From Deltaproteobacteria bacterium (GTDB lineage Bacteria; Desulfobacterota; Syntrophorhabdia; Syntrophorhabdales; Syntrophorhabdaceae): a DNA stretch of 32,000 bases. A program made the position numbers and the translations under genes. The notes below the pieces were generated by a model. The model was not told the DNA's origin, ran no database searches, and saw nothing but the letters and a program-made list of their open reading frames with translations. Below are positions 4,682 to 32,000 of this stretch, in pieces. The stretch covers positions 60,215-92,214 of the forward strand of contig JAKLET010000014.1 of assembly GCA_022711595.1 (NCBI GenBank), given 5' to 3'. Position 1 is the first letter of the stretch. The number at the start of each line of letters is the position of its first letter.

Positions 4682-5497
4682 GTGCGAAGATTACACTTGT
4701 TCGAGATGAGTGACGCTAAATGGTGCCCGCCTTCTCTGCGCGGCATCGTTACAGATTATATACAGTTCGGCGTGATGATGTGGAGGATGGATGTCGAGAT
4801 GGCCTCTCTTCTGAGGCTGACATTGGAGCGCCTCGGCGTGAATGAGGTGGTCGATCTGTGTTCCGGCAGCGGAGGGCCCTGGTTTCGCGTGCAGTGGATG
4901 ATGGAGAAGGAGGGATTTCCCGTCAAGGTCTGGCTCACCGATAAATATCCCAACGCGGCGGCGCTCACATTTGCCCGAAACGCATCCGGCGGCAAATTTG
5001 ATTTCTGCTCCGAGCCTGTCGATGCCACCAGGGTTCCTGAAACCCTTGGCGGTTTCAGGACTATTTTTTCGGGTTTCCATCATTTCCGGCCCGGGGAGGC
5101 CCGTGATATCCTTCGGGATGCGGTGGATTGCCAACAGGGGATCGCCATATTCGAGATAACAAAGCGGACGGCGTGGTCAATGCTCAATTTCGCCGCCACA
5201 GCCTTGCTCGTGCCTCTTTGTGTACCTTTATTGAGGCCTTTCCGGTGGTCAAGGCTGTTGTGGACCTACCTGTTCCCTGTCGCAACGCCGGTCATCCTCT
5301 TTGATTCACTGGTGTCCTGCCTGCGAAGTTATTCCATCACCGAAATGAGAGGGATGACGGAAGGTCTTGACGCGAAGGGTTATACGTGGGAGGCCGGGGA
5401 GATCAAGCCGCCTCATTCGCCCGTTCCTATCACGTTCCTGGTGGGATATCCAACAAAAAACAGTTTGAAAGTTTATGAAGCGTTTGAGAGTTTGTAA
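4682..5497 (+). CDS. Putative class I SAM-dependent methyltransferase-like protein with hydrophobic C-terminal segments
   Basis: 271 aa. A glycine-rich motif-I-like sequence VVDLCSGSGGPW is present. Hydrophobic stretches (AWSMLNFAATALLVPLCVPLL, LLWTYLFPVATPVILF) follow it. The start is ambiguous (GTG 4682 or ATG 4706). This is the only plus-strand gene inside the minus-strand block. Confidence 0.4.
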   Translation: MRRLHLFEMSDAKWCPPSLRGIVTDYIQFGVMMWRMDVEMASLLRLTLERLGVNEVVDLCSGSGGPWFRVQWMMEKEGFPVKVWLTDKYPNAAALTFARNASGGKFDFCSEPVDATRVPETLGGFRTIFSGFHHFRPGEARDILRDAVDCQQGIAIFEITKRTAWSMLNFAATALLVPLCVPLLRPFRWSRLLWTYLFPVATPVILFDSLVSCLRSYSITEMRGMTEGLDAKGYTWEAGEIKPPHSPVPITFLVGYPTKNSLKVYEAFESL

Positions 5498-10532: not shown

Positions 10533-10648
10533 GCTTGAACCGCTTGAATGCTTGAACGGCTTGAATGTTCAAAAGAACATTTTTAAAAGATGAATATTTT
10601 ATTGTTTCTGACGCTCAAGCGGCTCAAGCGGTTGAAACGGCTCAAGCT
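10533..10648. repeat. Inverted pair of short-period arrays (GCTTGAA x4 at 10533-10565; GCTCAAGCG-type 9-mers x4 at 10613-10648) around a 47-nt AT-rich loop
   Basis: GCTTGAA occurs at 10533, 10542, 10550 and 10559. The 9-mers have an exact 9-nt period at 10613, 10622, 10631 and 10640. On the minus-strand RNA, GCUUGAGCCG can pair with CGGUUCAAGC (9 Watson-Crick pairs and 1 G-U). The right array overlaps the radical SAM stop codon at 10642-10644. Confidence 0.8.
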
Positions 10649-12114
10649 GTCTTTTCGTTTTTTCCTGCTATCCGTCTGTCGGTCAGGGCGAAGCGCAGGA
10701 AGGGGCCGATATTGGAGATGAATCTCTTCCAGCTGTCAGGAGAACGCCAGATCATTGTGACATAGTCGATGAGCGTCTTCGGCCGCATGATGTGCTTGCG
10801 GTAGAACTTCGTGAAGAGCCTTTCGAGCAGCTTTTTTGTCATACCTTTTGGGATGAAGAGGAAGCTCATGCAGTCCATCTTCGGCCAGTCCTCATCAAAA
10901 GTGCCCAGTTCATGAGCGTTCTCGTAGAGGGGTGTGCCCGGGAAGGGTGTGAACTTGGAGACGTTGATGTCATCGACAGGCAGGGAGAAGACATAGTCCA
11001 TGCTTTTTTCTATACTTGACCGGGTTTCCCCGGGGAGCCCGATCATCATGAGTCCCTTTACGCGTATACCGGCTTTCTTGATGACCCTTATCTTTTCCGC
11101 CAGCATGCCAAGGTCCGCATTCTTTCGATGGCGGGCGAGGAGCTCTTCATCGCCCGTCTCGATGCCCAGGCTTATCATCCAGCACCCTGCCTGCCTCATC
11201 ATGCCGGTAAGCTCCGGATCGATGTGTTCCGCGCGCACCGCGCAGTTGAATGTCATCCCAAGTGGCTTGTCGATCATCATGCGGGTGAATTCGACGACCC
11301 TCTGGCGATTGAAGGTGAACTGGTCATCATAGAAATTGACATGGCGGATGTGAAACCGCTCGTGGAGATATTTCAGGTGCTCGTAGAGGTAGCCGGCGGA
11401 ATTGTACCGGAAACTGTTGCGGAAGACGGACCGGTCGCAGTAGCTGCAGGCGTAAGGGCATCCCCTGCTGGATATGCAGCTTGAATTGGGGGTCCCGGGA
11501 TAGTTGAATATGGGAAGCTTGTAGGCAAGCGGGTATCCGGGGAGCTTTTCATAAGCGGGGAAGGGGAGACTGTCGAGATCGACGCCATTTTTCCGGTAAC
11601 CGGTAAAGCTTGGGCCTTCCTTCCCATCGCGGTAGACGATGCCCGGCACGCGCGGCAGCAGCTGTGTCTCACCGCCGCACTCGATGAGCTCTTTCAGGGT
11701 TTCTTCACCTTCACCGACTACGGCCAGATCGACCTGGGGGAAACCTTCGAGCGTCCTTGTTTTGAGCGCCGACACATGGGGGCCGCCGAAGACTGTCTTT
11801 ATTCCGGGCTCCACTGATTTTGCCAGACCGGCGATGCGTACCCCGTCAAGGAAGCTGGACGTAGTGCAGCTCAAGCCGATAAAAGCCGGCCGGTATCTTG
11901 CCAGGTAGTCCCTGATGAGAGGGTCCGACATGGGATTGGCATAGTAATCGACGATATCGGCCTCGATGCCGGCCCGCTTCAGATAGGCCGCAAGGCTTGC
12001 AAGGCCGAGAGGCGGCATGATATTCGCTTTTCTCGATATATCATGGCCGGCGCTCTCCGTCCCGTATCCCAGGGGATGGACAAGAAGGGCCCTTTTTTCG
12101 TTCAGTGTTGTCAT
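10642..12114 (-). CDS. B12-binding-domain radical SAM enzyme (class B type), copy 1
   Basis: 490 aa. The N-terminus looks like a cobalamin-binding domain (LLVHP...PPLGLASLAAYLKRAGIEADIVD). The radical SAM cluster motif is CPYACSYC. Confidence 0.85.
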   Translation of the reverse strand: MTTLNEKRALLVHPLGYGTESAGHDISRKANIMPPLGLASLAAYLKRAGIEADIVDYYANPMSDPLIRDYLARYRPAFIGLSCTTSSFLDGVRIAGLAKSVEPGIKTVFGGPHVSALKTRTLEGFPQVDLAVVGEGEETLKELIECGGETQLLPRVPGIVYRDGKEGPSFTGYRKNGVDLDSLPFPAYEKLPGYPLAYKLPIFNYPGTPNSSCISSRGCPYACSYCDRSVFRNSFRYNSAGYLYEHLKYLHERFHIRHVNFYDDQFTFNRQRVVEFTRMMIDKPLGMTFNCAVRAEHIDPELTGMMRQAGCWMISLGIETGDEELLARHRKNADLGMLAEKIRVIKKAGIRVKGLMMIGLPGETRSSIEKSMDYVFSLPVDDINVSKFTPFPGTPLYENAHELGTFDEDWPKMDCMSFLFIPKGMTKKLLERLFTKFYRKHIMRPKTLIDYVTMIWRSPDSWKRFISNIGPFLRFALTDRRIAGKNEKTA

Positions 12115-12132
12115 GTTTTATTTGGCAAGGTT

Positions 12133-13485
12133 TTAATCAAAACGCACCAGTCTGTTCCACATAAGGCCTCGATAGCCGACACTTTTCAGCTTTCTCATGA
12201 GAGCGAGCCCGTCAAACGGGGGAAAGATCCTGTTTATGCGCCTCTGGAAAGAGTTCAGGATGGTATCGTACATTTTTTGGGCGTCTATGTCAGGGGAGAA
12301 ATAATAGATCGGCTCCAGAAGGGAGGCCCCCTCCGCAACGAGACCGTCCTTTATTGCCCGTCCGTGGATCGGGGTGGAAGGGAGGACCCTGATGCCGGAG
12401 AAAGCGAGGACCATACAGTTCCTGAGAAGGTCAAGATTGTGCAGACCTTTATTGACGGAGGCCTCGGTCTCGTCAGGGCCGCCGAACATCACATAATGGG
12501 CGCAGGGTATCCGCTCCCTCACGGCAGCTTCGTTGAAATCATATATATCATCAAAGCAGAATTGCTTGTTCAGGCCCCACAGGGCGGTATCGTTCGACGC
12601 GTCGGTCCCCAGTTCTATGGCATAGAGCCCCGAGCGCTTGAGCAGGGACCATGTCTCCCTGTCCATCCTGGCGGGACGGAAAAAGGCCGTCCACTTTATA
12701 TCCATCTCCCTGCGCACAATGATCTCGGCGACCTTCAGGTAGCCGCCCTCTTCATCGTTGAAGACGGAATCGGTAAAATAGAAGGTGTCGATACCGTGGT
12801 CGATCTTAAGCTTTTCCATGTCGTCTACGACATCATCGGGCGGCCTGTGCCGTATCACGTGGCCTTCGATGGCGGGATAGGTGCAGTAGGCGCACCGGTA
12901 TGGACAACCCCGCTTTGTCAATATGTTCATCATGCCGCTTTCCTGCTTGTAGAAATCGACCAGGCCGTTCTCCCAGCAGGGACTGCATGTGGTCGCTGTC
13001 TCCACGTTCCCGTTCCGAACGCTGTTTGCGGTGATGCGCGGCATCGGTCTTTTTTCGTTGAGCCCATCGATGAGTCCGCAGATGGTTCGTTCCCCTTCGC
13101 CGACCACGCCGTAGTCTGCGCCGAGGTAACCGAGGATCTCCTCGGGCATGACGGAAAAGGCAGACCCCCCGATGATCACGGGCGCGGCCGTTGCCTCTCT
13201 GATTGCCCTTACGAGGTCAAGGTCGGACGAGAGGTACCAGTTGTCTTCGGGGTCGCATGAGTCGACGGAGTCGATGTTGCGCAGCGAAATGCCCACATAA
13301 TGGGGATCAAAGCCGGATATCGCCTCTTTAAGGCGATCTTCGGACCGGCCCTCCACGAGGAGGTCGTACTGTCGTACCTCGTGCCCCGCCGAGGCAAGCG
13401 CCGTGCTGATGATGGCCATGCCTATGGGGTAGACCGGGTACGGGTCTGAAACCGTGTTGGGGGAGATCAAAAGCACCCTGCTCAT
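12133..13485 (-). CDS. B12-binding-domain radical SAM enzyme (class B type), copy 2
   Basis: 450 aa. The N-terminus is VLLISPN...YPIGMAIISTALASAGHEVRQYDL. The CxxxCxxC motif is CPYRCAYC. Its ATG overlaps the stop of the upstream gene (TGATG). Confidence 0.85.
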   Translation of the reverse strand: MSRVLLISPNTVSDPYPVYPIGMAIISTALASAGHEVRQYDLLVEGRSEDRLKEAISGFDPHYVGISLRNIDSVDSCDPEDNWYLSSDLDLVRAIREATAAPVIIGGSAFSVMPEEILGYLGADYGVVGEGERTICGLIDGLNEKRPMPRITANSVRNGNVETATTCSPCWENGLVDFYKQESGMMNILTKRGCPYRCAYCTYPAIEGHVIRHRPPDDVVDDMEKLKIDHGIDTFYFTDSVFNDEEGGYLKVAEIIVRREMDIKWTAFFRPARMDRETWSLLKRSGLYAIELGTDASNDTALWGLNKQFCFDDIYDFNEAAVRERIPCAHYVMFGGPDETEASVNKGLHNLDLLRNCMVLAFSGIRVLPSTPIHGRAIKDGLVAEGASLLEPIYYFSPDIDAQKMYDTILNSFQRRINRIFPPFDGLALMRKLKSVGYRGLMWNRLVRFD

Positions 13486-14747
13486 CAGTTTGCACTCTTT
13501 TTTTTGAAAACGCGCTTTTCCTTCGCGTTGTATCCCCGGTATGTTCCGTCTTTCATCTCTTTACGGATCACGTTCATGAAAAGCTCGCCCATCTTGATCT
13601 GAAGGCCGTTGTCCCCATAGAATGTGTCCCAGGCATAATAGTAGAGTTCCTGGAGTTTTTCCGGCGTCATGCGTTTCGGCCGGAAGACCACCCTGTCTGC
13701 CGTGTAATGTTGCCAGTTGTTGTCGAAGATCCTCCCTTCGCTTTCGAGCCGCTGCCTGATGGGTGAGTGGAGGAAGGGAGTCAGGACGGTGAACTCGGCC
13801 ATATTGACCCCGATCTCCTGGATGAAATCGACGAGGCGCTTGATGTAGTCCTCGTCGTGGTCGTCGGTGCCGAGTATTATGGTGCCTTCCACTCCTATCC
13901 CGTGGTCTTTGAGCCGCTGTACCCTTCTGCGGATCGTATCGGAGGTGTCGTATATCGCCTGGTAGACATACCAGCACCCGGCGTCGGCGGCGAGGGAAAG
14001 GATCTCGTCATCGTCAAGGATGGGGTGGCAGACAAACTTTTTCTTGAGGGGGGCCATGGCCGTGAAGAGGTCGATCAGCCATTGACGTTCCTGCGCGAGG
14101 GAATTGTCCACAAGGAAAAGGCGGTTGTTCGGTATCGATGCCATCTCTTCTACCACCCTGTCGATGGGGCGCGGCCTGAACTGCCTGCCGCCGAGATAGC
14201 CGACGCAGCAGGGAAAGCAGTTGAACTTGCAGCCGCGGGACGCGTGGATGAGGTCAACCATCTGGACACCGCGGTAATTGTAGAGCTCCCTTTTAAGGAG
14301 GTCGCGCCGTGCCGTGCCGATAAGGCCTATATCGGGGCGGTCGTCGAAATGGTTGTAGACGGGTTTGAGGCGGCCCTTCTTAAGGTCTTCGATTACCCGC
14401 GGGAAGCGGCCCTCTGCTTCTCCGATGAAGAGGGCATCGGCATGCGCGGCTGCTTCATCGCTGTGGAGCGTTGCTGCGATCCCGCCCATCACGACAGGTA
14501 CACCCCGGGCGCGATACTGCGCCGAGATCTCGTATGCCCTGGGAAGCTGGATCGTGAGCATCACCGACAGGGCAACGATATCGGGAGAGTCGGTGAGGGG
14601 ATAGTCCTCAACATTCTCATCGACGAACGTTATATCGACCTCTTCGGGAACGGTCGCCGCAAATACCACGGGGCCGTGAGGAGGGAGGTGAAACTCTGTT
14701 TGCCTTTGAAGTTTGGACCATCTTGGATAGATCAGTGTCATCTTCAT
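13485..14747 (-). CDS. B12-binding-domain radical SAM enzyme (class B type), copy 3
   Basis: 420 aa. The N-terminus is MTLIYPRW...PPHGPVVFAATVPEEVDITFVDE. The CxxxCxxC motif is CKFNCFPC. AAGGAAGG lies upstream of the ATG at 14747. Confidence 0.8.
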   Translation of the reverse strand: MKMTLIYPRWSKLQRQTEFHLPPHGPVVFAATVPEEVDITFVDENVEDYPLTDSPDIVALSVMLTIQLPRAYEISAQYRARGVPVVMGGIAATLHSDEAAAHADALFIGEAEGRFPRVIEDLKKGRLKPVYNHFDDRPDIGLIGTARRDLLKRELYNYRGVQMVDLIHASRGCKFNCFPCCVGYLGGRQFRPRPIDRVVEEMASIPNNRLFLVDNSLAQERQWLIDLFTAMAPLKKKFVCHPILDDDEILSLAADAGCWYVYQAIYDTSDTIRRRVQRLKDHGIGVEGTIILGTDDHDEDYIKRLVDFIQEIGVNMAEFTVLTPFLHSPIRQRLESEGRIFDNNWQHYTADRVVFRPKRMTPEKLQELYYYAWDTFYGDNGLQIKMGELFMNVIRKEMKDGTYRGYNAKEKRVFKKKSAN

Positions 14748-14775: not shown

Positions 14776-15492
14776 CTATTTTGTCAGACCTTTGGAGATC
14801 CTTTTGAATATATCTTCCAGGCTATGTGCTGGAGCCCCATCGAACAGGATATCGCCCGAGGGCGCCATGTCAAGTCCTCCGTATGACAGGGAATCATCGG
14901 CGGGGGACTTCTCGATGAACAGGAACAATGCGCCGGGCGTCACATTCGTATCATGCTGGAAAGATTCGGGACGACCGGGGTCGGCAGTGCCGACGAGCAT
15001 TGTCAGACAATCGTCGATCAGCATGCTGCTCAGGGCCATGCGCAGGCCGCGAAGTCCGGTCAGTTTGGGTTCGTTGACGGCGAAGCCCGGTCCCGTGAGC
15101 CCGAAGCGGATCGCCGCCTCGCCGAGGAATATATTGGGGAGCGTACAGGCAAAGAGATTGGGGCTCGCAAGGTTGCCCCCGAAGGTCATCACCGTTTCGA
15201 AGTAGTCAATGTCCGTGGCGAGGCAGCCGTGGACTGTGGAAACGATAATCCCGATGGGGCGCTTGTTTTTCCATTTGTCCTGCATCGCGTCTTTCAGGGC
15301 GAAGGCGGCAGCGGCAAGGCCGAGCTTCGAGTATTCATCGAGCCTGCCGAAATGGGGTGAAACTTCGCCGAAGACCATTCTGCTGGTGAGCTTCGGCAGT
15401 GCCGCATCTTTCGATTGGAACTTTTGATGGCCGCGCCCTGAGCCCATGCTTTCCCGTTTTACCCAACCGATGCCGGTGACCGAAGCGATCAT
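14776..15492 (-). CDS. Truncated KS-like protein without catalytic Cys (ApeC-type chain-length-factor-like partner)
   Basis: 238 aa from ATG 15492, which overlaps the KS stop (ATGA). The sequence resembles only the N-terminal half of a KS (IASVTGIGW..., NLASPNLFACTLPNIFLGEAAIRFGLTGPG). The Cys position reads NEPKLTG. The longer 261-aa ORF is an upstream extension into the KS gene. Confidence 0.6.
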   Translation of the reverse strand: MIASVTGIGWVKRESMGSGRGHQKFQSKDAALPKLTSRMVFGEVSPHFGRLDEYSKLGLAAAAFALKDAMQDKWKNKRPIGIIVSTVHGCLATDIDYFETVMTFGGNLASPNLFACTLPNIFLGEAAIRFGLTGPGFAVNEPKLTGLRGLRMALSSMLIDDCLTMLVGTADPGRPESFQHDTNVTPGALFLFIEKSPADDSLSYGGLDMAPSGDILFDGAPAHSLEDIFKRISKGLTK

Positions 15493-16643
15493 ATGCTTTT
15501 GCCCCTTTCCAGGACTATGGCCGCGTTGATCCCTCCAAAGCCGGAGTTGGAGGTGAGACACAGATCGCCGGCAAGAGGCGCCGTTTGCGCGCTCACAAGG
15601 CCTTCAGCGCCCTCTTCGGGGTCCTTGAACCCCGTTGTCGGAGGGACCATTCGCACAGAAAGGGCCTTTGCGGCCAGGGCTACCTCTATGCCCCCGGCCG
15701 CTCCCGTTGTATGTCCTATGCTTCCCTTCACGGAATAAACGGGAATGTCACGTCCGCCGAAGACACGTCTCAAGGCCTTAATTTCCATGAGATCGTTGTA
15801 TGTGGTTCCCGTACCATGGGCGCTTACGGCGAAAATGTCCTCCTGTTTCAGACCCGCACGGGCAAGCGCTTGCCCTATCGCCATGACAAGTCCTTCGCCG
15901 TTCTGGGCAGGGGAGGTTATGTGAAAGGCGTCGTTCGACGCGCCCCAGCCGCGGACAACGGCAATGCAGGACCGTGCGTCCCTTACAGCCCTTTCTTCAC
16001 TCATCATCAGCAGGGCGGCGGCCCCGTCCCCAAGAGTCAGCCCGCTCCTCGACCTGTCAAAAGGACGTGCGGGGAAGGCCGAGACAACTTTCAGGGCGCA
16101 GAAGCCGGAAAAGGTGAATTCCGTGACAACGTCGGCGCAGCAGACGATGACAGCTTCGGCCAAGCCCGAGGCGATCAGGGAAGCCCCCTGGGTGATGGCG
16201 ATGGTCGACGAGGCGCAGGAGGCGCTCACATTTGTTCCTGTGTCCTTGAGGCCCAGTTTCTGCGAAACCATCTCAGGCAGGCAGGAAAGGAGCACGTCCC
16301 CACCGCGCGCGGCCTCTTTCCGCCGGAGCCTCTCCAGGTTGTCGATCCCCATCTTCGTCGTTGCCGTGACAAGCACCGCGTCTGACGGTACCGGACCTAT
16401 CCCCTTGAAGAGGATCTCGACGAGTGAATGGATCAGCGACCTGTCACCCGTTGGCTTGAGACCTTCAACACAGGCAGCCAGACGGGAATAGTACCCTTGC
16501 GGGCAAAAGCGATCGATCTCCCTGATGCCCGTTGCCCCCTTCACCAGACCTTCCCAGGTGTCCCCGAGGTTTTGCCCGAGCGCTGTGACCGCGTTGGCGT
16601 CTACGATCCAGATCTTTTTTATTTCAGTTCCCCTGCTTTCCAT
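15489..16643 (-). CDS. Beta-ketoacyl-ACP synthase I/II
   Basis: 384 aa. The motifs VSASCASSTIAI (Cys), SAHGTGTTYND (His) and GSIGHTTGAAG (His) are present. Confidence 0.9.
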   Translation of the reverse strand: MESRGTEIKKIWIVDANAVTALGQNLGDTWEGLVKGATGIREIDRFCPQGYYSRLAACVEGLKPTGDRSLIHSLVEILFKGIGPVPSDAVLVTATTKMGIDNLERLRRKEAARGGDVLLSCLPEMVSQKLGLKDTGTNVSASCASSTIAITQGASLIASGLAEAVIVCCADVVTEFTFSGFCALKVVSAFPARPFDRSRSGLTLGDGAAALLMMSEERAVRDARSCIAVVRGWGASNDAFHITSPAQNGEGLVMAIGQALARAGLKQEDIFAVSAHGTGTTYNDLMEIKALRRVFGGRDIPVYSVKGSIGHTTGAAGGIEVALAAKALSVRMVPPTTGFKDPEEGAEGLVSAQTAPLAGDLCLTSNSGFGGINAAIVLERGKSI

Positions 16644-17480: not shown

Positions 17481-19855
17481 GCCTTTTTTCTGTAAAGCGC
17501 CGGGACCACCAGCAGGGCCGAGGGGATCACGCCGCACAGGCCCAGAAGGACCGTTATCCCGATGGAACTTAAGGCCGGGTGATGCGCCAGGGCCAGTGCG
17601 CCGATGCCCACAAAACTTGTCAGGCCGCCGAGGAGGATGCCCAGATTGGCGGTATGCTCGTAGCCTTCGGTGATGTTGCAGACCATGAATATCCCGAGAT
17701 CGACACCGAGCCCGATGACGAGTATGGTGGCAACGATGTTGAAGATATTGAACTGAACGCCCAGGGCTCCCATGGTGCCGAGCATAAAAACAAGCCCCGT
17801 CGCAACAGGCACGAGCGCGAGGAGGATCTTTTGCAGGTTGCGAAAGAGGAGGCTTACCGACACGATGATGACAAGCAGTGCGAAGACGATATAGCGGGAG
17901 AAATTGCCGACGAGGGCCTTGCCGATGATCTCCCTGAAGCGGCCCTGCGACACGAGGCGCACCCCCTGTGGTCCGTTCCCGTCATTGCTGAAGAGATCGA
18001 CGTTGGCTTTCGTGTCGGGGATGAGCGTCAGGGTCTGGACACTGCCGTTGCCTTTCACGATCATTGAATCCATGAGGTCCGCGAAACCGGTCTCCTTCAT
18101 ACCGCTTTCCGTGACGGGGCCGGGCTGCTTTGCGAGCATGTCAAAGAACGGCAGGAAGGCGCCCGCCGAGAAACCGAGCTTTCCGCCCTCTTCCGACAGG
18201 AGCTTTTGCGCCAGCCGCCCGTTGCCACCGGACCAGAAATCCGCCCATCGCTTTGCGTTAGCCCGCTGCGTCGCCGATGAAGGGAATAATGGCGCCAGGC
18301 TGATGATCTGCGCCGCAGGGAGCTTTTCCGAAAGATAGGCAAAGAGGGAGTCATTGGCAAAAAGCGATGCCTCCAGGTCCTTACCCTCGGCAAAAAGGAT
18401 CGCGCTGTCCCTGAAGTTGCCCCACGTTTTCGACATGTGCCGCTCGGATCTTTGGAGCTCTTCGGGTACGAAGTTCATGGCCTTGAGATCGCCGTTGAAG
18501 TCGAGCCGCCCCGCCTGCCACAGGCACACTGCCATGACTGCGAGCCAGCAAAGGAGCACTCCCTTGCGCGGCAGGCTGAAGGTGCGCGCCGGATGCGCGC
18601 CGACGTAACGCTTCCTGCCGGGGAGCGAATGGACGAGGTGAGGAAGCACGACAAGGGAGAAAACAAGGGACACGGCGACCCCGATCATCGAAAAGACCGC
18701 AAGCTGACGCTGTCCAGGCAGCGTGGAGAGGAGCATGACGCCGAATGTGGCGATGGTGGTGAGCCCGCCGAACATCACGGGATGGGCGACCTCCCTTGTT
18801 ACCGGGGCGGGATCGCGCTCTTTGCTGCACAGGGCGAAATAGACAAGTATGGGGTAATCATCGGATATCCCCAGGAGCACGGCGCCGAAAGCCATTGTCA
18901 CTGCCGAGACACTGTCATAGATAAGAAGCGTTCCCGCCGTTGCAAGGCACAGCACCGAAGAGGGGACGAGAAAAACGAGTATGCCCTTCCAACTCCTTAA
19001 AAAAGCCATTATCAAAAGGAAGATGGCAACGGACGCGCAGGTCAGGATTACATAGAGGTCTTTCTTGATCGTCCCAGCGTTGGCCGCGGTGTATGCATGG
19101 CCGCTCACGAAGGACGCTTCGATCTTGGGGGGGACCACCTTTTTTATGAGGTCTTTAAGGTGTGTCACCAGTTCATCGGAGCCTTTTGAATCGGTTATCT
19201 TCACCGGCGTTTTTGCTATCACGAGAGCGCTGCTCCCGTCGGCGCTTATGAAATGGTTGTTGTACAGGGCCATCCCGGGGATGACGTTGAGATGACGGAG
19301 TTTTTCAAGGACTCCGCTGCGCATATCAAGGGGATCGGCCTGCAGAAGGGGCTTCATGAACCATCCCTCGGGTAATGTCAACTGTTTATACACATTTTGC
19401 AGACGGGAGCGGACCTCTTCCGGTGTGAGTGCCTTTTGCGCCGCCGCCATGTCCCTGGCGGTGAATGTGTTCGGGAGGGTGTTCATGAGCCATTGCGGGA
19501 GCCGCTCGTCAGACGCAATGGCCGGCCCGGCCACGGCGCGGGTGAAATAAGGCGGTGTCATGGCACGGCTCAACATATCCGCCGCGTCGGTGAGCTCTTT
19601 CTTTCCTGTCCCCGGATCTCCCTTGAGGCTGACCAGGACCTTGTCAGAAAAGGGCGCCTTCTGAAGCAGCGCGAAGTCTTTCGCGGCCTCGCTGCGGTCA
19701 TCGGGCAAAAGAGGCTTTATGTCCTCGTTCATCCTGATGTTCCTCAGGATGAAGGCGGCAAGGATGATGACGGCGAAGGTGGCGCAGTAGAGCAGAGGCC
19801 TTCGGCGTGCAAGATGACTGTAAAGTGATGAAAAAACAGAGAAAAAGGAATTCAT
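17477..19855 (-). CDS. MMPL/RND-superfamily lipid exporter
   Basis: 792 aa from ATG 19855, which lies 2 nt after the LolA-like stop. There are two blocks of multiple hydrophobic helices separated by large soluble loops. The N-terminus is MNSFFSVFSSLYSHLARRRPLLYCATFAVIILAAF. The 871-aa ORF extension is Arg-rich read-through of the upstream gene. Confidence 0.8.
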   Translation of the reverse strand: MNSFFSVFSSLYSHLARRRPLLYCATFAVIILAAFILRNIRMNEDIKPLLPDDRSEAAKDFALLQKAPFSDKVLVSLKGDPGTGKKELTDAADMLSRAMTPPYFTRAVAGPAIASDERLPQWLMNTLPNTFTARDMAAAQKALTPEEVRSRLQNVYKQLTLPEGWFMKPLLQADPLDMRSGVLEKLRHLNVIPGMALYNNHFISADGSSALVIAKTPVKITDSKGSDELVTHLKDLIKKVVPPKIEASFVSGHAYTAANAGTIKKDLYVILTCASVAIFLLIMAFLRSWKGILVFLVPSSVLCLATAGTLLIYDSVSAVTMAFGAVLLGISDDYPILVYFALCSKERDPAPVTREVAHPVMFGGLTTIATFGVMLLSTLPGQRQLAVFSMIGVAVSLVFSLVVLPHLVHSLPGRKRYVGAHPARTFSLPRKGVLLCWLAVMAVCLWQAGRLDFNGDLKAMNFVPEELQRSERHMSKTWGNFRDSAILFAEGKDLEASLFANDSLFAYLSEKLPAAQIISLAPLFPSSATQRANAKRWADFWSGGNGRLAQKLLSEEGGKLGFSAGAFLPFFDMLAKQPGPVTESGMKETGFADLMDSMIVKGNGSVQTLTLIPDTKANVDLFSNDGNGPQGVRLVSQGRFREIIGKALVGNFSRYIVFALLVIIVSVSLLFRNLQKILLALVPVATGLVFMLGTMGALGVQFNIFNIVATILVIGLGVDLGIFMVCNITEGYEHTANLGILLGGLTSFVGIGALALAHHPALSSIGITVLLGLCGVIPSALLVVPALYRKKA

Positions 19856-21999: not shown

Positions 22000-23227
22000 G
22001 CTCGTACCTCCTTATGACAATAGATGTGTTTACGCCACCCAGGGCAAAGTTGTTCTTCATAACGGCCCCTATGTCCAGCCTTTCAACTTTTCGGACATGC
22101 CTGATGCCCGCGCATGACGGGTCTATGTTCTCCATATTGAGCGTGGGGATCACCGATCCGCTGCGGATCATTGCGACGGAGGCGATCATTTCGAGGGCGC
22201 CGCAGGCGGCCATTGTGTGGCCCAGGTGTCCTTTCAGGCTGCTGACCGGTACGCTGCTGCCGAAGACCCTTCCGATCGCCTCGGCTTCCGCGTTGTCGCC
22301 CTGTATGGTGCCTGTCGCGTGGGCGTTCACGTGACCGATGTCCCCGGCGGTCATGCCGGCGTCATCCAGCGCCTGTTTCATACAGGCCTCCATGGAATCG
22401 CTGTTGGGATCGGCGATGTTCGATGTATCGCAGCGCGTGGCAAAACCGGCTATCTCGGCAAGGATGGGAGCGCCCCGTCTTTTTGCCGAATCCAGCGATT
22501 CCAGGAGCAGTATGCCGCTGCCCTCGGAGCAGACAACGCCATCCCTGTCGCGATCGAATGGCCGGGGTGTACGGCCGGGGGTGTCGTTGTAAGCGATGGA
22601 GGCCGCGCTCATGATGTCGAAGGTGGCCGGGCTCAAAGGATGGAACTCGTCCGCGCCCCCGCAGAGCATCATGTCCTGCTTGCCGAAGGCGATCATCTCG
22701 AAGCCGTACCCGATCGCTTGGCAGGACGTGGAACATGCCGAGGAAGGGGCCAGGATCCGGCCGTTGATGCCGAGAGTCTGGGCCACGTTCGAGGCACAGG
22801 AGTGGTTCATGATCTGGAAGAAGGTGGTGGCCCTCATATTTTCGATGCTATGGCCGGAGAGATAGCCGGAGAAGAATTCCTCCGTTACAATAGGGCTTCC
22901 GACAGTGGAACCTATGATGATGCCCATCCTCCCGGCGGTGAAGTGCTCCGCGGGGGGATCGCTTTGGCCCAGAGCTTCCTTGCATGCCAGCGTGGCGTAT
23001 ACGGACATCATCGACATGGACCTCCTGTGTTTCCGGAGTATCTCTTTCGGGTCGATATCGGGGACAAGCGCCGCCACCCTGGTCCTGAGCCCGCCGACGG
23101 CCGCGAGCTCGGGGACATTGACCACAGCGCTCTTCATATTGAAAAGGGAATCAACGAGCGTATTCACACCCCGCCCGAAGGGCGATATGGAACCCATACC
23201 GGTTATTACTACCCTTGCGGCCTGCAT
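21992..23227 (-). CDS. Beta-ketoacyl-ACP synthase I/II
   Basis: 411 aa. The motifs PSSACSTSCQAIG (Cys), NAHATGTIQGD (His) and GHLGHTMAACG (His) are present. Confidence 0.9.
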   Translation of the reverse strand: MQAARVVITGMGSISPFGRGVNTLVDSLFNMKSAVVNVPELAAVGGLRTRVAALVPDIDPKEILRKHRRSMSMMSVYATLACKEALGQSDPPAEHFTAGRMGIIIGSTVGSPIVTEEFFSGYLSGHSIENMRATTFFQIMNHSCASNVAQTLGINGRILAPSSACSTSCQAIGYGFEMIAFGKQDMMLCGGADEFHPLSPATFDIMSAASIAYNDTPGRTPRPFDRDRDGVVCSEGSGILLLESLDSAKRRGAPILAEIAGFATRCDTSNIADPNSDSMEACMKQALDDAGMTAGDIGHVNAHATGTIQGDNAEAEAIGRVFGSSVPVSSLKGHLGHTMAACGALEMIASVAMIRSGSVIPTLNMENIDPSCAGIRHVRKVERLDIGAVMKNNFALGGVNTSIVIRRYEHD

Positions 23228-24702
23228 TCCTTCAGTTCCTCCCTGAGATGCTCGCGCCCGAAGATGTTCTCACAAACGATGAATCCTGACATGACGGCGC
23301 CCATTATACCGGGTGCAGTTACGGCCTGGCCGGCAAGGTAGAGCCCTTTCAACCTGGTGACGGGCATCGGGTTGTACTGCCCCGTCCTGTGCTTTACCCC
23401 GTATATGCTGCCGTAGGGACTGCCCGTGTAGTCCCTTAGTGTGAGCGGCGTCGCACATTCCACAGCGGTGATCGTGCCGGCTATTTCAGGACATGATGCC
23501 TCTATATGGCTGCAGATCTTTTCGGTCATCTCATTTTTAAAGATCTTGTAATCCACGGGGCGTCTTCCTGTTACGGAGTCCGCCCAGCGCTGCGTTTTTG
23601 CGTTCGACATGGGACAGATGGCAATGAACCCATGTTTTCCGGACCCATTGCTACCGCGTGCGGCGGTTATGTAAAGGGGTCTTTCTTCCACTGGCAGGTC
23701 ATTATGGAAGAAAGAGAAATCGGGCCGCGGGAATATGAAAAGATTGGATCCCTGAAGGCGCTCGACAGGTCTTGTGCATTCAGCGAAGAGTATGCAGGCG
23801 GAAGATGTGTCTTCAAGATCCTGAAGGCGTTTCACGTATGCCGGCCGCAGGAGCTTATCGGGAACCATCTCAAGCAGCATGTGCGGATGGACTGTGGAGA
23901 CGCAGCCGCCGCATTCAAGTGTGGTGCCGTCATTGAGTGCGACACCGTTGACGGCCCCGCCCGGGGCGGCAAGGATATTTTTCGCCCCCTGTCCGCAATA
24001 TATACTGACCCCCGCTTTTTCAAGCGCGTCTTCAAAGGCCTTCGCGAGACTTTGCCCTCCGCCCTTGATGCCGCTTGCCGATTCATAATATGAACCAGCT
24101 ATGCATGCATGATGCGCGAAAAGGGTCTCTCCCGGCGACACTCCGTAGAGGAAGCAGTGCATGGAAAGGACGCATTTGAGGATGCTGTTGCCCGTCAGCC
24201 TGCCCAGGAATTCTTCAAGGCTCGGTCCGTGCACGCTCGAAAACGCCTCAGGCCCGGCCTGCCCGTCAAGGTTCACATAAGGGAGCGAGCAGTATATCTT
24301 CCGGACGGTGCCCAGGTAGTCGTCGACGGCCTCTTTATCGCCGGGGAAGGTGTTGTGAAAGGCCCCTGCGAGACTTTCATACCCGTAAGGCTGATGGAAC
24401 TCGAATGAGGGGTCGAGGCAGCACATGATATCGAAGCCCTCTTTCTTGAAGGGATAGGTCTCGATACCGTCGGAGAGCCCGAGGTACCTGAAGAAGATGT
24501 CCAGCGGTTCCCCCACCCCGAGGGCGCCGGTATAATGGAAACCTGTATCAAAAAAAAGTCCCCTTCTCGTGAAACCCCTGACGGTCGGGGCCACACGTTT
24601 CGAACGCTCCACAAGGGCCGTCCGGCAGCCGTGTTTTGCCAGTATCAGGGCCGTTGTAATGCCCGATACGCCGCCGCCTATGACCACGTAATCGTATTTC
24701 AT
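23209..24702 (-). CDS. FAD-dependent oxidoreductase, phytoene desaturase (CrtI)-like family, second copy
   Basis: 497 aa. The N-terminal motif is YDYVVIGGGVSGITTALILAKHGCRTALVE. It has an ATGA-type 4-nt overlap with the upstream KS and a 19-nt overlap with the downstream KS. Confidence 0.7.
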   Translation of the reverse strand: MKYDYVVIGGGVSGITTALILAKHGCRTALVERSKRVAPTVRGFTRRGLFFDTGFHYTGALGVGEPLDIFFRYLGLSDGIETYPFKKEGFDIMCCLDPSFEFHQPYGYESLAGAFHNTFPGDKEAVDDYLGTVRKIYCSLPYVNLDGQAGPEAFSSVHGPSLEEFLGRLTGNSILKCVLSMHCFLYGVSPGETLFAHHACIAGSYYESASGIKGGGQSLAKAFEDALEKAGVSIYCGQGAKNILAAPGGAVNGVALNDGTTLECGGCVSTVHPHMLLEMVPDKLLRPAYVKRLQDLEDTSSACILFAECTRPVERLQGSNLFIFPRPDFSFFHNDLPVEERPLYITAARGSNGSGKHGFIAICPMSNAKTQRWADSVTGRRPVDYKIFKNEMTEKICSHIEASCPEIAGTITAVECATPLTLRDYTGSPYGSIYGVKHRTGQYNPMPVTRLKGLYLAGQAVTAPGIMGAVMSGFIVCENIFGREHLREELKECRPQG

Positions 24703-28047: not shown

Positions 28048-29346
28048 ATGAAGATCCTCCTTGTCAATCCTCCCAATTGCGGGCGTAGCATCCCCGAGGA
28101 ACAATACGGCATAGACTCGCTGAAACAGATAATGCGGGCCGAGCCCCTCTCGCTTGAGGCCCTTGCGGGAAACCTTGACGAACATGAGGTAAGGATCGTC
28201 GACCTGAAGGCGCAGCCGGACACATTCGGAGAGGCCCTTGCCGGTTTTGCTCCGGACATTGTGGGTATTACCGGTGTTACCTGTGAGGCGAACACCATGC
28301 TGAAACTCGCGTCAGAGGTAAAGCGGGAGAGTGAGGCCACGGTCGTCGTAGGCGGCGTCCATGCAAGCAATGATCCGTCCTTCTTTAACAGTGCTGATAT
28401 AGATTTCATTGTGGCAGGTCTTGGGAAGAAGAGCTTTCGGGTACTGGCAGAGGCGCTGCGGTCGGGAAAAGGAGCTGATGAAATTCCCGGGGTCACGAGG
28501 ACAAATCCCGGGGGGAGCATTTCCCTCGCGCGGAGGAAATGCTCCGGTGAAGACCTTGTAGACGACAAGCCGCCCCGCTATGACCTGGTGAACATGTACA
28601 GGGAACATTATTTCCTGGAATCGTTAAATTTACAGTTCGGTCTTGTTTCCGTCGCCTTCGGTTGCCCTTACCGCTGTTCTTTCTGCTCTATTCATCATAT
28701 CACGGGGGGAACCTATCTGACTCACAGCACGGCTGCGGTTCTGCGGGACATCAGGATATTTGCGGACCTGCCGGCGGTGATCCGCCTTGTCGATGCCAAC
28801 ACCTTCGGAGATGCCGGACATGCCCGCTGCCTTGCCGGTGAGATCATAAAGGCAGGCATAAAGAAACAGTTCGTAGCAGACGTGCGTTCCGACACGGTGG
28901 TGCGCCACCCGGACCTCTTCCGGGAATGGAAGGAGGCGGGACTGCGCTCTGTCATCATCGGTTTTGAAGAGGTCGACGACACCAGGCTATCGGAGATCAA
29001 CAAGGTGAACACGGTGGCCGTGAATACCGAGGCCATAGAGATACTTCACGATATAGGCATCACCATCATAGGCGACTTCATTGTTTCACCCGACTACGAT
29101 GACCGGCAGTTCCAATCATTGAGGAACTACCTGGGCGAACACCCCGTCGATCTGCCCATGCTCTCCATACTCACACCGCTGCCCGGAACACCCCTTTACG
29201 AGTCCATGAAAGAGAGGATTGCCATCCATGACCTTGATTTCTATACACTCACCAACGCGGTAGTTCCTACAAACATACCAGAAAAGGCCTTCTACGAGAA
29301 CTATGCGGACCTCATGAGGTCAAGCCATGCAGGGGCAAAATTATAG
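28048..29346 (+). CDS. B12-binding-domain radical SAM enzyme (class B type), copy 4
   Basis: 432 aa. The N-terminus is MKILLVNPP...EPLSLEALAGNLDEHEVRIVDLK. The CxxxCxxC motif is CPYRCSFC. Confidence 0.85.
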   Translation: MKILLVNPPNCGRSIPEEQYGIDSLKQIMRAEPLSLEALAGNLDEHEVRIVDLKAQPDTFGEALAGFAPDIVGITGVTCEANTMLKLASEVKRESEATVVVGGVHASNDPSFFNSADIDFIVAGLGKKSFRVLAEALRSGKGADEIPGVTRTNPGGSISLARRKCSGEDLVDDKPPRYDLVNMYREHYFLESLNLQFGLVSVAFGCPYRCSFCSIHHITGGTYLTHSTAAVLRDIRIFADLPAVIRLVDANTFGDAGHARCLAGEIIKAGIKKQFVADVRSDTVVRHPDLFREWKEAGLRSVIIGFEEVDDTRLSEINKVNTVAVNTEAIEILHDIGITIIGDFIVSPDYDDRQFQSLRNYLGEHPVDLPMLSILTPLPGTPLYESMKERIAIHDLDFYTLTNAVVPTNIPEKAFYENYADLMRSSHAGAKL

Positions 29347-29362
29347 CGAGGTGCAATCTCTT

Positions 29363-30535
29363 ATGGATGTTTATATAACGGATGTTTCTTCTTTTCTTCC
29401 CAATGGTCCCGTGTCGAACGACGATATGGAAAAGGTTCTGGGGGTGGTGGAGCATATACCCACCAGGATCAAAAAGATCGTTCTGAAAAGCAACGATATC
29501 CATTCAAGGTATTATGCTATCGACCCCGAAACGGGAAGACAGACACATACCAACGCTCAGCTCGCCGCCGAGGCGGTGCGCCGCCTTAAGCCTTACGATG
29601 GTTTTTCTCCAGACGACATCGAATGCCTTTGCTGCGGGACGTCCACGCCGGACCAGATCATGCCGGGCCACGGATTGATGGTTCACGGTGAACTGGCAAG
29701 CGGCCCCTGCGAGGTCGTGAGCACATCGAGCATCTGCATATCGGGGATGACGGCATTGAAATACGCTTATATGAACGTGGCGCTTGGCCTTTCGAAGAAC
29801 GCCGTGGCAACGGGTTCGGATCTGGCGTCGGCATCCCTGAAGGCAAGGTTCTATGAGGCGGTCGGCGAGAAGAGAAAGGGCGGGAAGTTCAAGGAAGACG
29901 GAGAAGTGCCGCTCTTCGATACGGTCTTCCTCAGGTGGATGCTTTCCGACGGTGCGGGCGCGGTTTTCATGACGGGCAGCCCCACAGGCGCCGGCGGTGC
30001 CTTGAAAGTTGAATGGATCGAGAATATATCCTTCGCGGGGGAATTCGAAACCTGCATGTACTGCGGGGCGAAAAAGGAGGGGGACGGCCGGGTGACGGGC
30101 TGGCGCGGCTATCCTTCCCCGGAGATGGCCGCACGCGACGGGGCCTTTCTCATCAGACAGGATGTGAAGCTGCTGAACCGGGACATCATGAGGGTCTCTG
30201 TCGAAAAGACGCTGCCCTTTGTCATTGAAAGGCGCGGTCTTTCACCTGCCGGGGTCGATTGGCTGCTGCCGCATTATTCGTCGGGTTATTTCCGGCAGGA
30301 ATACTATGACCACCTGAAGGATTTCGGGTTCGAGATACCCTACGAGAAATGGTTCACAAACTTGAATGACAAGGGGAACACCGGATCGGCCTCAATGTAC
30401 ATAATCCTTGAAGAACTATTCCATTCGAACAGGATAAAGAAAGGCGACAGGATACTCTGCTATATTCCCGAGAGCGGAAGGTTCTCCGTCTGTTACGTCA
30501 TGCTGACAGTGGTGCGGGTCCCATCTGTTTCCTGA
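29363..30535 (+). CDS. KAS III-like (FabH-family) condensing enzyme, long form
   Basis: 390 aa from ATG 29363. An alternative ATG at 29327 would overlap the radical SAM gene by 20 nt. The N-terminus is FabH-like (VYITDVSSFLPNGPVSND). Cys lies in STSSICISGMTAL, His in LLPHYSSGYF and Asn in KGNTGSASMYI. Confidence 0.7.
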   Translation: MDVYITDVSSFLPNGPVSNDDMEKVLGVVEHIPTRIKKIVLKSNDIHSRYYAIDPETGRQTHTNAQLAAEAVRRLKPYDGFSPDDIECLCCGTSTPDQIMPGHGLMVHGELASGPCEVVSTSSICISGMTALKYAYMNVALGLSKNAVATGSDLASASLKARFYEAVGEKRKGGKFKEDGEVPLFDTVFLRWMLSDGAGAVFMTGSPTGAGGALKVEWIENISFAGEFETCMYCGAKKEGDGRVTGWRGYPSPEMAARDGAFLIRQDVKLLNRDIMRVSVEKTLPFVIERRGLSPAGVDWLLPHYSSGYFRQEYYDHLKDFGFEIPYEKWFTNLNDKGNTGSASMYIILEELFHSNRIKKGDRILCYIPESGRFSVCYVMLTVVRVPSVS

Positions 30536-30797
30536 CATAGCCTGCCAGTGTCTTTACGGTTCTGAAGATCACCCGGCTTGATTCCTCCAGGCTTATCCTC
30601 ACGTTGTATTTCTTCTCCACGGCCACGGCGATCTCCACGGCATCGAGCGAATCCAGTCCGAGGACGGAATCGGGGCCTATGAGCGGGTCATCGGGAGAGA
30701 AGTCGTCCTGCACGGGATCGGATATCCTGCATATTCCAACGATCATCTCCAGCAGTTCCTTTTCAAATTCCAGCCCAGGTTGTTCGAACAGTTTCAT
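30498..30797 (-). CDS. Acyl carrier protein (longer, N-terminally extended)
   Basis: 99 aa. It carries the motif VLGLDSLDAVEIAVAVE. GGTGGA lies 7 nt upstream of the ATG at 30797. Its 3' end overlaps the convergent KAS III-like gene by 38 nt. Confidence 0.8.
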   Translation of the reverse strand: MKLFEQPGLEFEKELLEMIVGICRISDPVQDDFSPDDPLIGPDSVLGLDSLDAVEIAVAVEKKYNVRISLEESSRVIFRTVKTLAGYVRKQMGPAPLSA

Positions 30798-30895
30798 TAG
30801 CCATCCACCTTATTTCGTCAATTTTTTTCTTAAAAATCCTTTGCGGCATATGTGAACCACGCCGGGATCGTTTCCCGTGAACGGTACCGGGAAAA

Positions 30896-31909: not shown

Positions 31910-32000
31910 TTTCCGGACCTTTCTCAAGCTGCTCCACCGATATGCCGAAGACCTTTGCGTAGCGCTCCAGCAGGGAATGAGAGAGGCGCCGGAACACCCC
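31902..32000 (-). CDS. 3' end of an unidentified upstream gene, truncated by the window edge
   Basis: An open frame reads ...GVFRRLSHSLLERYAKVFGISVEQLEKGPEND followed by a stop. The stop overlaps the BtrH-like ATG by 8 nt, which suggests the same operon. The function is not assignable. Confidence 0.3.
   Translation of the reverse strand, partial: GVFRRLSHSLLERYAKVFGISVEQLEKGPEND

Follow-up and report, generated by a model that had tools for sequence, protein, structure and literature searches.

Four radical S-adenosylmethionine (SAM) enzymes, here called rS1 to rS4, are encoded within a 32,000-nucleotide stretch of contig JAKLET010000014.1 from a Deltaproteobacteria bacterium of the Syntrophorhabdaceae (hereafter the window). 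With little room for doubt, these genes form part of a "ladderane-type" cluster of aryl-polyene/flexirubin-like content with a dialkylresorcinol module, in which rS1, rS2 and rS3 make up a consecutive trio and rS4 accompanies the resorcinol genes. The four proteins would tailor a polyene bound to acyl carrier protein (ACP) or the resorcinol lipid, each at a different step. That this radical tailoring is mainly C-methylation is a tentative assignment, to which we give slightly less than an even chance; the evidence tilts towards methylation for rS2 and rS4 only. Taken as a whole, cluster identity and tailoring roles together, this is our best explanation, and we regard it as evenly poised between right and wrong.

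The trio lies on the minus strand and begins with rS3 (13485-14747; 420 amino acids; motif CKFNCFPC), a divergent Rossmann/radical SAM protein, followed by rS2 (12133-13485; 450 amino acids; CPYRCAYC) and, as the last gene, rS1 (10642-12114; 490 amino acids; CPYACSYC). The fourth gene, rS4, is on the plus strand (28048-29346; 432 amino acids; CPYRCSFC) and overlaps the darB open reading frame (ORF) by 20 nt. The ORF listing and translations bear out the four ORFs and CxxxCxxC motifs reported in a first-pass annotation of this DNA, as well as the TGATG coupling described there for the second and third genes, the rS3 stop and rS2 start overlapping as AACTGATGAGC. In the related loci inspected, ORF coordinates place the two genes in abutting or overlapping positions, mostly with an overlap of about 4 nt. 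All four proteins pass the Pfam gathering score of 32.1 for the B12-binding domain PF02310 (rS1, 85.4 bits; rS2, 64.8; rS3, 39.0; rS4, 56.3), and rS1, rS2 and rS4 pass that of 29.5 for the Radical_SAM domain PF04055 (80.1, 60.1 and 51.5 bits). rS3 falls below the latter at 22.9 bits, and its PF02310 match is both the weakest of the four and partial, covering profile positions 41-120; its cysteines C173, C177 and C180 are invariant among 39 homologues. Judged by their domains, the four are class-B-type radical SAM proteins encoded among ketosynthase (KS), ACP and dehydratase genes. The earlier description of each ORF as cobalamin-binding-like plus radical SAM thus holds as far as PF02310 is concerned, and cobalamin use by rS3 is uncertain.

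Family assignment indicates that rS1 to rS4 represent four different subfamilies rather than duplicates. The first-pass annotation had called them paralogues and envisaged repeated tailoring of an acyl chain. Their pairwise identity is only 20-26% (BLASTP) and their family matches differ, and for these two reasons we reject both recent paralogy and iterative tailoring by four copies of one enzyme. The cut-off of NCBIfam model TIGR04072 ("lipid biosynthesis B12-binding/radical SAM protein", short name rSAM_ladder_B12) is 360 bits; rS2, with 627.4 bits over its full length, is thus a member of that family, and rS1, rS3 and rS4 reach 94.9, 46.6 and 49.9 bits, all below it. The next best matches of rS2 are BzaD (189 bits) and TsrM (158 bits), well below the respective cut-offs. 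For rS1 the best models are HpnJ (TIGR03471; 175.4 bits, cut-off 577.6) and BchE (TIGR02026; 169.6 bits, cut-off 481.35), followed by ApyD and PhpK-type models, and a protein 100% identical to rS1 is named "radical SAM protein [Syntrophorhabdaceae bacterium]". rS4 matches HpnR best (TIGR04367; 194.5 bits, cut-off 650) and is not a member of that family. rS3 has no NCBIfam match above 55 bits and none at cut-off; on the AprD4 model NF033070 (cut-off 500) it scores 32.2 bits and rS1 100.5 bits, so that neither is a member. The residues that align with TsrM Arg69, at the lower face of cobalamin, are Thr in rS1, Arg in rS2, Met in rS3 and Val in rS4, a variation consistent with four different chemistries.

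The assignment of the cluster itself draws on gene content. In Pfam and NCBIfam scans the host operon, about 26 kb on the minus strand, is of the aryl-polyene/flexirubin type and holds the corresponding gene set: type II KS and chain-length-factor (CLF)-like genes, ACPs, ketoreductase (KR), two dehydratases, thioesterase, LolA/MMPL, a family 2 glycosyltransferase with DUF2062 (GT2-DUF2062) and acyltransferases. It had been described as a fatty-acyl operon, but it is not plainly fatty-acyl. The best NCBIfam model for LolA is LolA2_flexi, below cut-off, and the ApeI- and ApeP-like matches, weak in the window, reach E<=1e-5 in orthologues from Geoalkalibacter. The rS3-rS2-rS1 module is placed between a KS/truncated-KS pair and the glycosyltransferase gene.

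Two published types of cluster come closest to that of the window. With the flexirubin and arcuflavin clusters of Bacteroidota and Betaproteobacteria (PMC3992019, PMC3949708) it shares KS/CLF-like pairs, KR, two dehydratases, thioesterase, LolA, MMPL, GT2, polysaccharide deacetylase, a PlsC-like acyltransferase, DarB, DarG, DarH, ACP and an ABC transporter, the last just beyond the window on the same contig. It differs from them in the radical SAM trio, in rS4 at the place of DarA, in two CrtI-like genes and in the lack of a tyrosine ammonia-lyase (TAL) or CoA-ligase gene within 10 kb; the published clusters, as described in these papers, contain DarA and list no radical SAM genes. With the "ladderane-type" list for Kuenenia (PMC4790861) the window has in common a glycosyltransferase, a phytoene-desaturase-like gene, FabF paralogues including non-canonical ones, ACPs, FabG, a FabZ-like protein, a polysaccharide-deacetylase-like protein and adjacent radical SAM genes. 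The two differ in that Kuenenia has two listed radical SAM genes and the window three in a row plus a fourth with DarB, and in that neither a phenylacetyl-CoA-ligase-like gene nor any recognised SAM methyltransferase came to light in the window. Celluxanthene, an anaerobic arylpolyene, was considered as a related pathway and set aside, since it is made by a type I iterative polyketide synthase and involves no radical SAM enzyme.

The window cluster is therefore a further member of a kind already catalogued as "ladderane-type", with uncharacterised chemistry. The first-pass annotation had held that radical tailoring is not part of known aryl-polyene chemistry, and no radical SAM gene is named in the descriptions of the characterised flexirubin and xanthomonadin clusters in PMC3992019 and PMC3949708. 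The arrangement as such is not new, because rS2 falls into TIGR04072, because the cluster type was published in 2009 (PMC2649909) and because antiSMASH makes "ladderane" calls, of unknown function, in Desulfobacterota and other non-anammox phyla (PMC9902471). According to the 2009 paper by Rattray et al. (PMC2649909), clusters like those of fatty acid synthases, with radical SAM and phytoene-desaturase-like genes, occur in Kuenenia (Kuste3335-3352), the radical SAM genes being Kuste3342/3343, and are syntenic with loci in Desulfotalea (DP1853/DP1855), Geobacter and Pelobacter. In a 2026 review, a "Ladderane" B12-radical SAM enzyme still stands in the group whose transformations are other or unknown (PMC12931638). 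Literature searches for studies of what these radical SAM genes do, whether in Geobacter or in aryl-polyene/flexirubin pathways, yielded none.

The trio is widely conserved. A scan that took one genome from each species yielded at least 538 genomes with a relative of rS2, from anaerobes that are mostly Desulfobacterota, and the 80 best loci were retrieved. These are mostly from Desulfuromonadales, Geobacteraceae, Geopsychrobacteraceae and Syntrophorhabdaceae, with a few labelled Nitrospirota, Lentisphaerae and Neptunomonas; the nearest genome loci come from a Syntrophorhabdus metagenome-assembled genome and an uncultured deltaproteobacterium. Where the retrieved locus leaves room for the neighbour, rS3 adjoins rS2 in 64 of 66 cases and rS1 lies directly downstream of rS2 in 64 of 73. 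Across 40 loci of at least 15 kb the order dehydratase, LolA, MMPL, dehydratase, thioesterase, KS, truncated KS, rS3-rS2-rS1 is kept, and after the trio come GT2, acyltransferase, ACP, KS, CLF and then often DarH. By this gene order the trio is a fixed and co-transcribed part of the cluster in its relatives. Compared with the proteins of the window, rS3 has a median identity of 68% (73 loci), rS1 of 66% and rS2 of 50%, which makes the least annotatable protein the most constrained. In a search of all libraries the rS3 orthogroup is tight, with representatives at 60% and 50% identity before a drop to 40% or less. Cluster look-ups of these representatives returned no anammox names, and the anammox link therefore rests on the literature and the TIGR04072 short name.

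Among the four enzymes, rS2 allows the most specific prediction. Its closest solved structure by sequence is TsrM (PDB 6wte, E=5.5e-34), the tryptophan C2-methyltransferase and thus a Csp2 methylase, and the benzimidazole C-methylase BzaD is regarded as likely to be a Csp2 methylase too, one "reminiscent of TsrM" (PMC12931638). rS2 has the domain order of these relatives and keeps the Arg at the cobalt lower-face position: rS2 R69, invariant in 12 family members, aligns with TsrM Arg69, which obstructs cobalamin at its lower face and activates the transfer of the methyl group (PMC8992657). The two glutamates characteristic of TsrM, by contrast, are replaced. At the position of Glu273, a ligand of the unique iron that prevents SAM cleavage (PMC8992657, PMC12931638), rS2 has V241, and Val or Ile is found across the family. 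At the position of Glu236, an unusual polar residue between the cofactors where radical-type enzymes carry a hydrophobic or aromatic residue (PMC12931638), it has the family-invariant Y203, which looks like the residue of radical-type enzymes. With Val and Tyr at these positions, the non-radical mechanism of TsrM is not expected for rS2. Since TsrM and BzaD are its closest characterised relatives, the lower-face Arg is kept and the SAM-blocking Glu is gone, rS2 is most likely a cobalamin-dependent C-methyltransferase that would act on an sp2 carbon (aryl, resorcinol or polyene) by a truly radical mechanism. C-methyltransferases make up the majority of the characterised B12-radical SAM enzymes (PMC12931638, PMC13459092).

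The fourth enzyme had been counted among the same acyl-tailoring set, and its surroundings place it instead in a separate dialkylresorcinol module. rS4 is divergent from the operon start, and the plus-strand gene that it overlaps (29327-30535) encodes a StlD/DarB-family ketosynthase, that is, a dialkylresorcinol or cyclohexanedione synthase (531.7 bits on NF005293, cut-off 450; 439.9 bits on the DarB "exception" model, cut-off 550). On the minus strand follow a 99-amino-acid ACP of the resorcinol module (30498-30797; PP-binding domain; NF006617 49.7 bits, below cut-off) and DarH, a BtrH-related acyltransferase (30896-31909; NF053550 424.9 bits, cut-off 300; Pfam BtrH_N and DUF4872), and then the 3' end of a DarG-family gene (31902-32000), which on the identical contig scores 143.9 bits on NF053536, above cut-off. 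The resorcinol module adjoins the operon. In a metagenome scan that yielded 23 loci, DarB directly follows rS4 in 13 of the 13 relatives with downstream sequence; several of these loci have ACP and DarH further on, with an ABC transporter between in locus L083. Given that the hopanoid C-3 methylase HpnR is its closest relative and that it is coupled to DarB, rS4 is most likely a methylase whose target is the product, be it dialkylresorcinol or cyclohexanedione, or one of its alkyl chains.

It could alternatively be speculated that rS4 replaces the aromatase DarA as an oxygen-independent substitute, oxidising and decarboxylating the carboxy-cyclohexanedione made by DarB to the resorcinol, which we consider rather unlikely. 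The host lineage is strictly anaerobic, which speaks for such a role. So does the position of rS4, immediately upstream of and overlapping darB, which is the place of darA in characterised darAB clusters (PMC3949708, PMC6836626), together with its constant adjacency to DarB in the 13 relatives and with the finding that no DarA-like protein was detected in the window, in the 10 kb beyond or in L083, in a search run without a known-DarA control. HpnR, however, is a methylase; DarA may or may not need oxygen, a darA gene may be present elsewhere in the genome, and "DarA-less" DarB homologues are known that may simply make other products (PMC6836626). Methylation by rS4 is the reading that we retain.

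The identical contig extends the view of this module. The DarG-family gene (133 amino acids), DarH (337 amino acids) and ACP (about 100 amino acids) form a unit present there in three tandem copies (L106 3308-11412; window 30498-32000 onward), of which the window holds one; the other two show about 86% and about 79% DNA identity to it. An ABC ATPase and permease separate the copy farthest from the window from the middle one, and past the whole set comes a PAS/HisKA hybrid kinase. Within the window, the ACP gene and the 3' end of darB (30535) overlap convergently by 38 nt.

For rS1 and rS3 the picture is less defined, and both probably carry out non-methylating radical steps, which could be redox, rearrangement or C-C chemistry. 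The first-pass annotation had proposed structure prediction as a check on the Rossmann domain, and a five-stranded Rossmann domain is seen in the AlphaFold models of both proteins, joined in rS3 (predicted local distance difference test score 87.6, predicted template modelling score 0.86) by a six-stranded partial barrel; the rS1 model has a predicted local distance difference test score of 80.5. In Foldseek searches both models match AprD4 first, ahead of TsrM, OxsB, QCMT, TokK and CysS. The rS3 model reaches a template modelling (TM) score of 0.79 on AprD4 (6fd2) and 0.58-0.67 on true cobalamin enzymes; the rS1 model reaches 0.69 on AprD4, followed by TsrM, OxsB, QCMT and TokK. In these models the two proteins resemble AprD4 in the compact Rossmann-like domain and radical SAM barrel, and differ from it in sequence (18-22% identity) and in setting, AprD4 being a 1,2-diol dehydratase that acts on an aminoglycoside. 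The first place of AprD4 in both searches probably reflects its compactness, unmatched among the solved folds of this type.

AprD4 has the same fold and binds no cobalamin (PMC12931638), and a match to the B12 domain is consequently no proof of B12 use; the doubt is greatest for rS3. It is quite conceivable, if on balance improbable, that rS3 is cobalamin-independent with a vestigial, AprD4-like Rossmann domain, in which case the cluster would contain three B12 enzymes, not four. The partial PF02310 match at 39 bits, the sub-threshold PF04055 score, the distance from the cut-off of every B12-radical SAM family and the margin by which cobalamin-free AprD4 leads the fold matches are in line with this. 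The inference from AprD4 is weakened by rS1, which has a strong B12-domain score and likewise matches AprD4 first; furthermore, the five-stranded Rossmann domain of rS3 is predicted at high confidence, and its invariant "LSVML" and "GG" segments align with their counterparts in rS1, rS2 and rS4. We keep rS3 among the four enzymes of the class-B type.

The matches of rS1 also bear on where in the molecule the trio would act. The hopanoid C-methylases HpnR/HpnP, the ring-contraction enzyme HpnJ and the cyclase BchE are radical SAM enzymes with a B12 domain and modify lipids or pigments. Among characterised families they score best for rS4 (HpnR) and rS1 (HpnJ and BchE), although rS4 and rS1 score 3- to 4-fold under their cut-offs and the substrates are isoprenoids or tetrapyrroles there and polyketide or fatty-acyl derived here. 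It might be proposed that the trio acts on a sugar or aminosugar head group that is added by GT2-DUF2062 and deacetylated by the polysaccharide deacetylase, in parallel to the hopanoid series HpnI/HpnK/HpnJ with its GlcNAc addition, deacetylation and radical ring contraction (PMC13459092). HpnJ is the best match of rS1 (175 bits), the rS1 gene adjoins the glycosyltransferase gene, a NodB-type deacetylase is encoded within the operon, and AprD4, the best fold match of rS3 and rS1, carries out a radical deoxygenation of an aminosugar. Yet flexirubin and xanthomonadin clusters free of radical SAM genes generally contain GT2-DUF2062 and the deacetylase as well (PMC3992019, PMC3949708), so that the two do not point to the trio in particular; rS1 also stays far under the HpnJ cut-off of 577.6, and AprD4 tops both models probably through its compactness. 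We consider head-group tailoring distinctly unlikely and favour action on the polyene or resorcinol lipid. As an observation on the same boundary, a short direct repeat, CCGCTTGAG, occurs twice (10600-10640) in the 70 nt that separate the stop codon of rS1 from the start of the glycosyltransferase ORF.

The affinity of rS1 for HpnJ- and BchE-type models may allow ring contraction or ring formation, and its score on BchE (169.6 bits) nearly equals that on HpnJ. One or more members of the trio might thus build a skeleton, forming C-C bonds or rings on the polyene-ACP by a BchE/GrsA-like or ladderane-type cascade and yielding a carbocyclic lipid. GrsA/B and BchE provide precedents for ring-making B12-domain radical SAM enzymes in lipids and pigments (PMC13459092), the two CrtI-like desaturases and the polyene-making KS, KR and dehydratases could supply a polyunsaturated substrate, and the short name rSAM_ladder_B12 ties the family to the ladderane hypothesis. 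The scores, however, are far under the family cut-offs and the base rate favours methylases. Moreover, the preferred candidate for ladderanes is at present another cluster, KustE3603-3608, which is specific to anammox bacteria (bioRxiv 2026.05.19.726425), and Desulfotalea psychrophila, which has a syntenic cluster, contains neither ladderanes nor cyclic fatty acids according to PMC2649909. We regard such ring or bond building as very improbable, and to the broader statement, that the trio goes further than methylation and remodels a polyene-ACP in its carbon skeleton, through radical rearrangement or the making of C-C bonds, we likewise attach little probability.

The unusual compounds of D. 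psychrophila are described as acyclic polyunsaturated chains, in passages of PMC2649909 that do not speak of methyl branching, and its polyunsaturated hydrocarbons gave rise to the hypothesis in that paper of an anaerobic polyunsaturated fatty acid or hydrocarbon pathway, in which the turn of the radical SAM enzymes would come either ahead of desaturation or after it; the CrtI-like genes would fit. The gene content, though, is of the pigment type, with a dialkylresorcinol module, LolA/MMPL export and TAL in relatives, and the tie between hydrocarbons and cluster is a proposal only. Bacterial polyunsaturated hydrocarbons of this sort are, besides, generally attributed to Pfa/Ole pathways. Of the possibilities raised here this is one to which we give hardly any credence, and tailoring of a pigment-like polyene or resorcinol lipid is preferred.

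Several points weigh against this preferred explanation as well. The cluster family has no known product for any member; the acyclic chains and missing ladderanes of Desulfotalea, just cited, count here too; and the Kuenenia homologues, when expressed in E. coli, led to no product, the radical SAM proteins not even being detected (PMC4790861). rS1, rS3 and rS4 lie under every curated family cut-off, and their functional analogies are thus a matter of distant similarity. Cobalamin binding is not readable from sequence, as the top fold match of rS1 and rS3 binds none, and no diagnostic sequence motif for base-off/His-off cobalamin binding was found in the review PMC13331322; an Rfam search found no cobalamin riboswitch in the window. 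Finally, aryl-starter genes (TAL, chorismatase, CoA ligase) were found neither in the window nor within 10 kb on either side, and consequently an aromatic methylation target other than resorcinol is not assured here. The flanks were read from contigs of identical sequence: the window is 100% identical to L107 and L108, contigs of two public metagenome assemblies, and 99.98% identical to L106 (235,745 bp).

The starter question has a different answer in relatives. In 23 related loci, in Desulfuromonadales and Geobacterales versions of the cluster and including the cultured Geoalkalibacter halelectricus, whose locus lies in CP092109.1 (986531-1007802), a gene of the aromatic amino-acid ammonia-lyase family PF00221 (TAL and histidine ammonia-lyase) stands directly upstream of the ApeP-like dehydratase gene (for example, L105 1-1125 and L047 809-1930), and flexirubin synthesis is initiated by the TAL FlxA (PMC3992019). 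Its presence there and absence from the window and 10 kb around it may mean that the lineage of the window uses a different, possibly non-aryl, starter. The G. halelectricus cluster (L104/L105) additionally carries, between the CLF-like KS and DarG/DarH genes, a PagL gene of the lipid A deacylase family (18718-19308), which hints that the product of that cluster is attached to, or remodels, outer-membrane lipid.

When these results are placed in the context of ladderane research, they touch on a question that dates from 2006-2009, namely the biosynthesis of ladderanes and the role of the look-alike "ladderane" clusters of anaerobes other than anammox bacteria. The comparison defines a conserved unit, a three-gene module of three different radical SAM subfamilies, which resides in flexirubin-like pigment-lipid clusters, many relatives having a TAL starter gene, and which is present in cultivable bacteria such as G. 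halelectricus; a fourth enzyme, rS4, is tied to resorcinol synthesis in the place of DarA. According to a 2026 review, ladderanes and the Jaw5 product alone among the ketoacyl (fatty-acyl-type) lipids have been suggested to undergo modification by radical SAM enzymes, and a demonstrated case here would be a rare one. Should the trio rewire the carbon skeleton, hundreds of Desulfobacterota would make an undescribed carbocyclic polyketide-lipid, and the same enzymes would supply the missing chemistry for anammox ladderanes. Should rS4 replace DarA, it would be the first radical SAM aromatase, and an anaerobic one.

The remaining genes of the operon are listed here in transcription order, all on the minus strand unless noted. 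The upstream part (27643 to 14776) begins with a KR, whose best NCBIfam model is FlxB (312 bits, cut-off 340), a NodB-type polysaccharide deacetylase and a FabB-like KS. It continues with a CrtI-like desaturase/oxidoreductase, KS, ACP and PlsC-like acyltransferase, then with the ApeP-like dehydratase, LolA, the MMPL exporter, the ApeI-like dehydratase and a 4HBT thioesterase, and ends directly upstream of rS3 with the KS and truncated KS (14776-16643). The latter pair consists of a 384-amino-acid KS and an overlapping ORF of 261 amino acids with the N-terminal KS domain only. On the model of AmcF from the cispentacin pathway, which belongs to a KS-like enzyme pair, several of the KSs encoded here reach 169-221 bits, all below its cut-off of 325. 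The CrtI-like gene (23209-24702) is intact in the window and in L107 (497 amino acids) and is split into 333 and 133 amino acids in L106 (17208-18701), a difference suggestive of a frameshift variant, either of one population or of one assembly.

The downstream part (10572 to 1720) follows rS1 with the GT2-DUF2062 glycosyltransferase, an LpxL-like acyltransferase, ACP, KS and CLF-like KS, and closes with a second CrtI-like oxidoreductase and FabH. Antisense to this end of the operon, between the CLF-like KS and the second CrtI-like gene, runs an ORF on the plus strand (4682-5497), whose position is conserved in Syntrophorhabdaceae-type relatives. Searches of Pfam, NCBIfam and the PDB gave no match for this ORF; its segment "VVDLCSGSGGP" is like motif I of class I SAM methyltransferases and is followed by a hydrophobic C-terminal part, and the ORF could thus encode an unrecognised membrane-bound methyltransferase. 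FabH, the last gene of the operon, is followed by an SLT gene, and about 2.4 kb beyond the latter, left of the window, lies a complete Mla operon (MlaE, MlaF-like ABC ATPase, MlaD, MlaC and MlaA/VacJ; L108 13628-17854). A VacJ-like gene has also been reported for the anammox cluster (Kuste3352).

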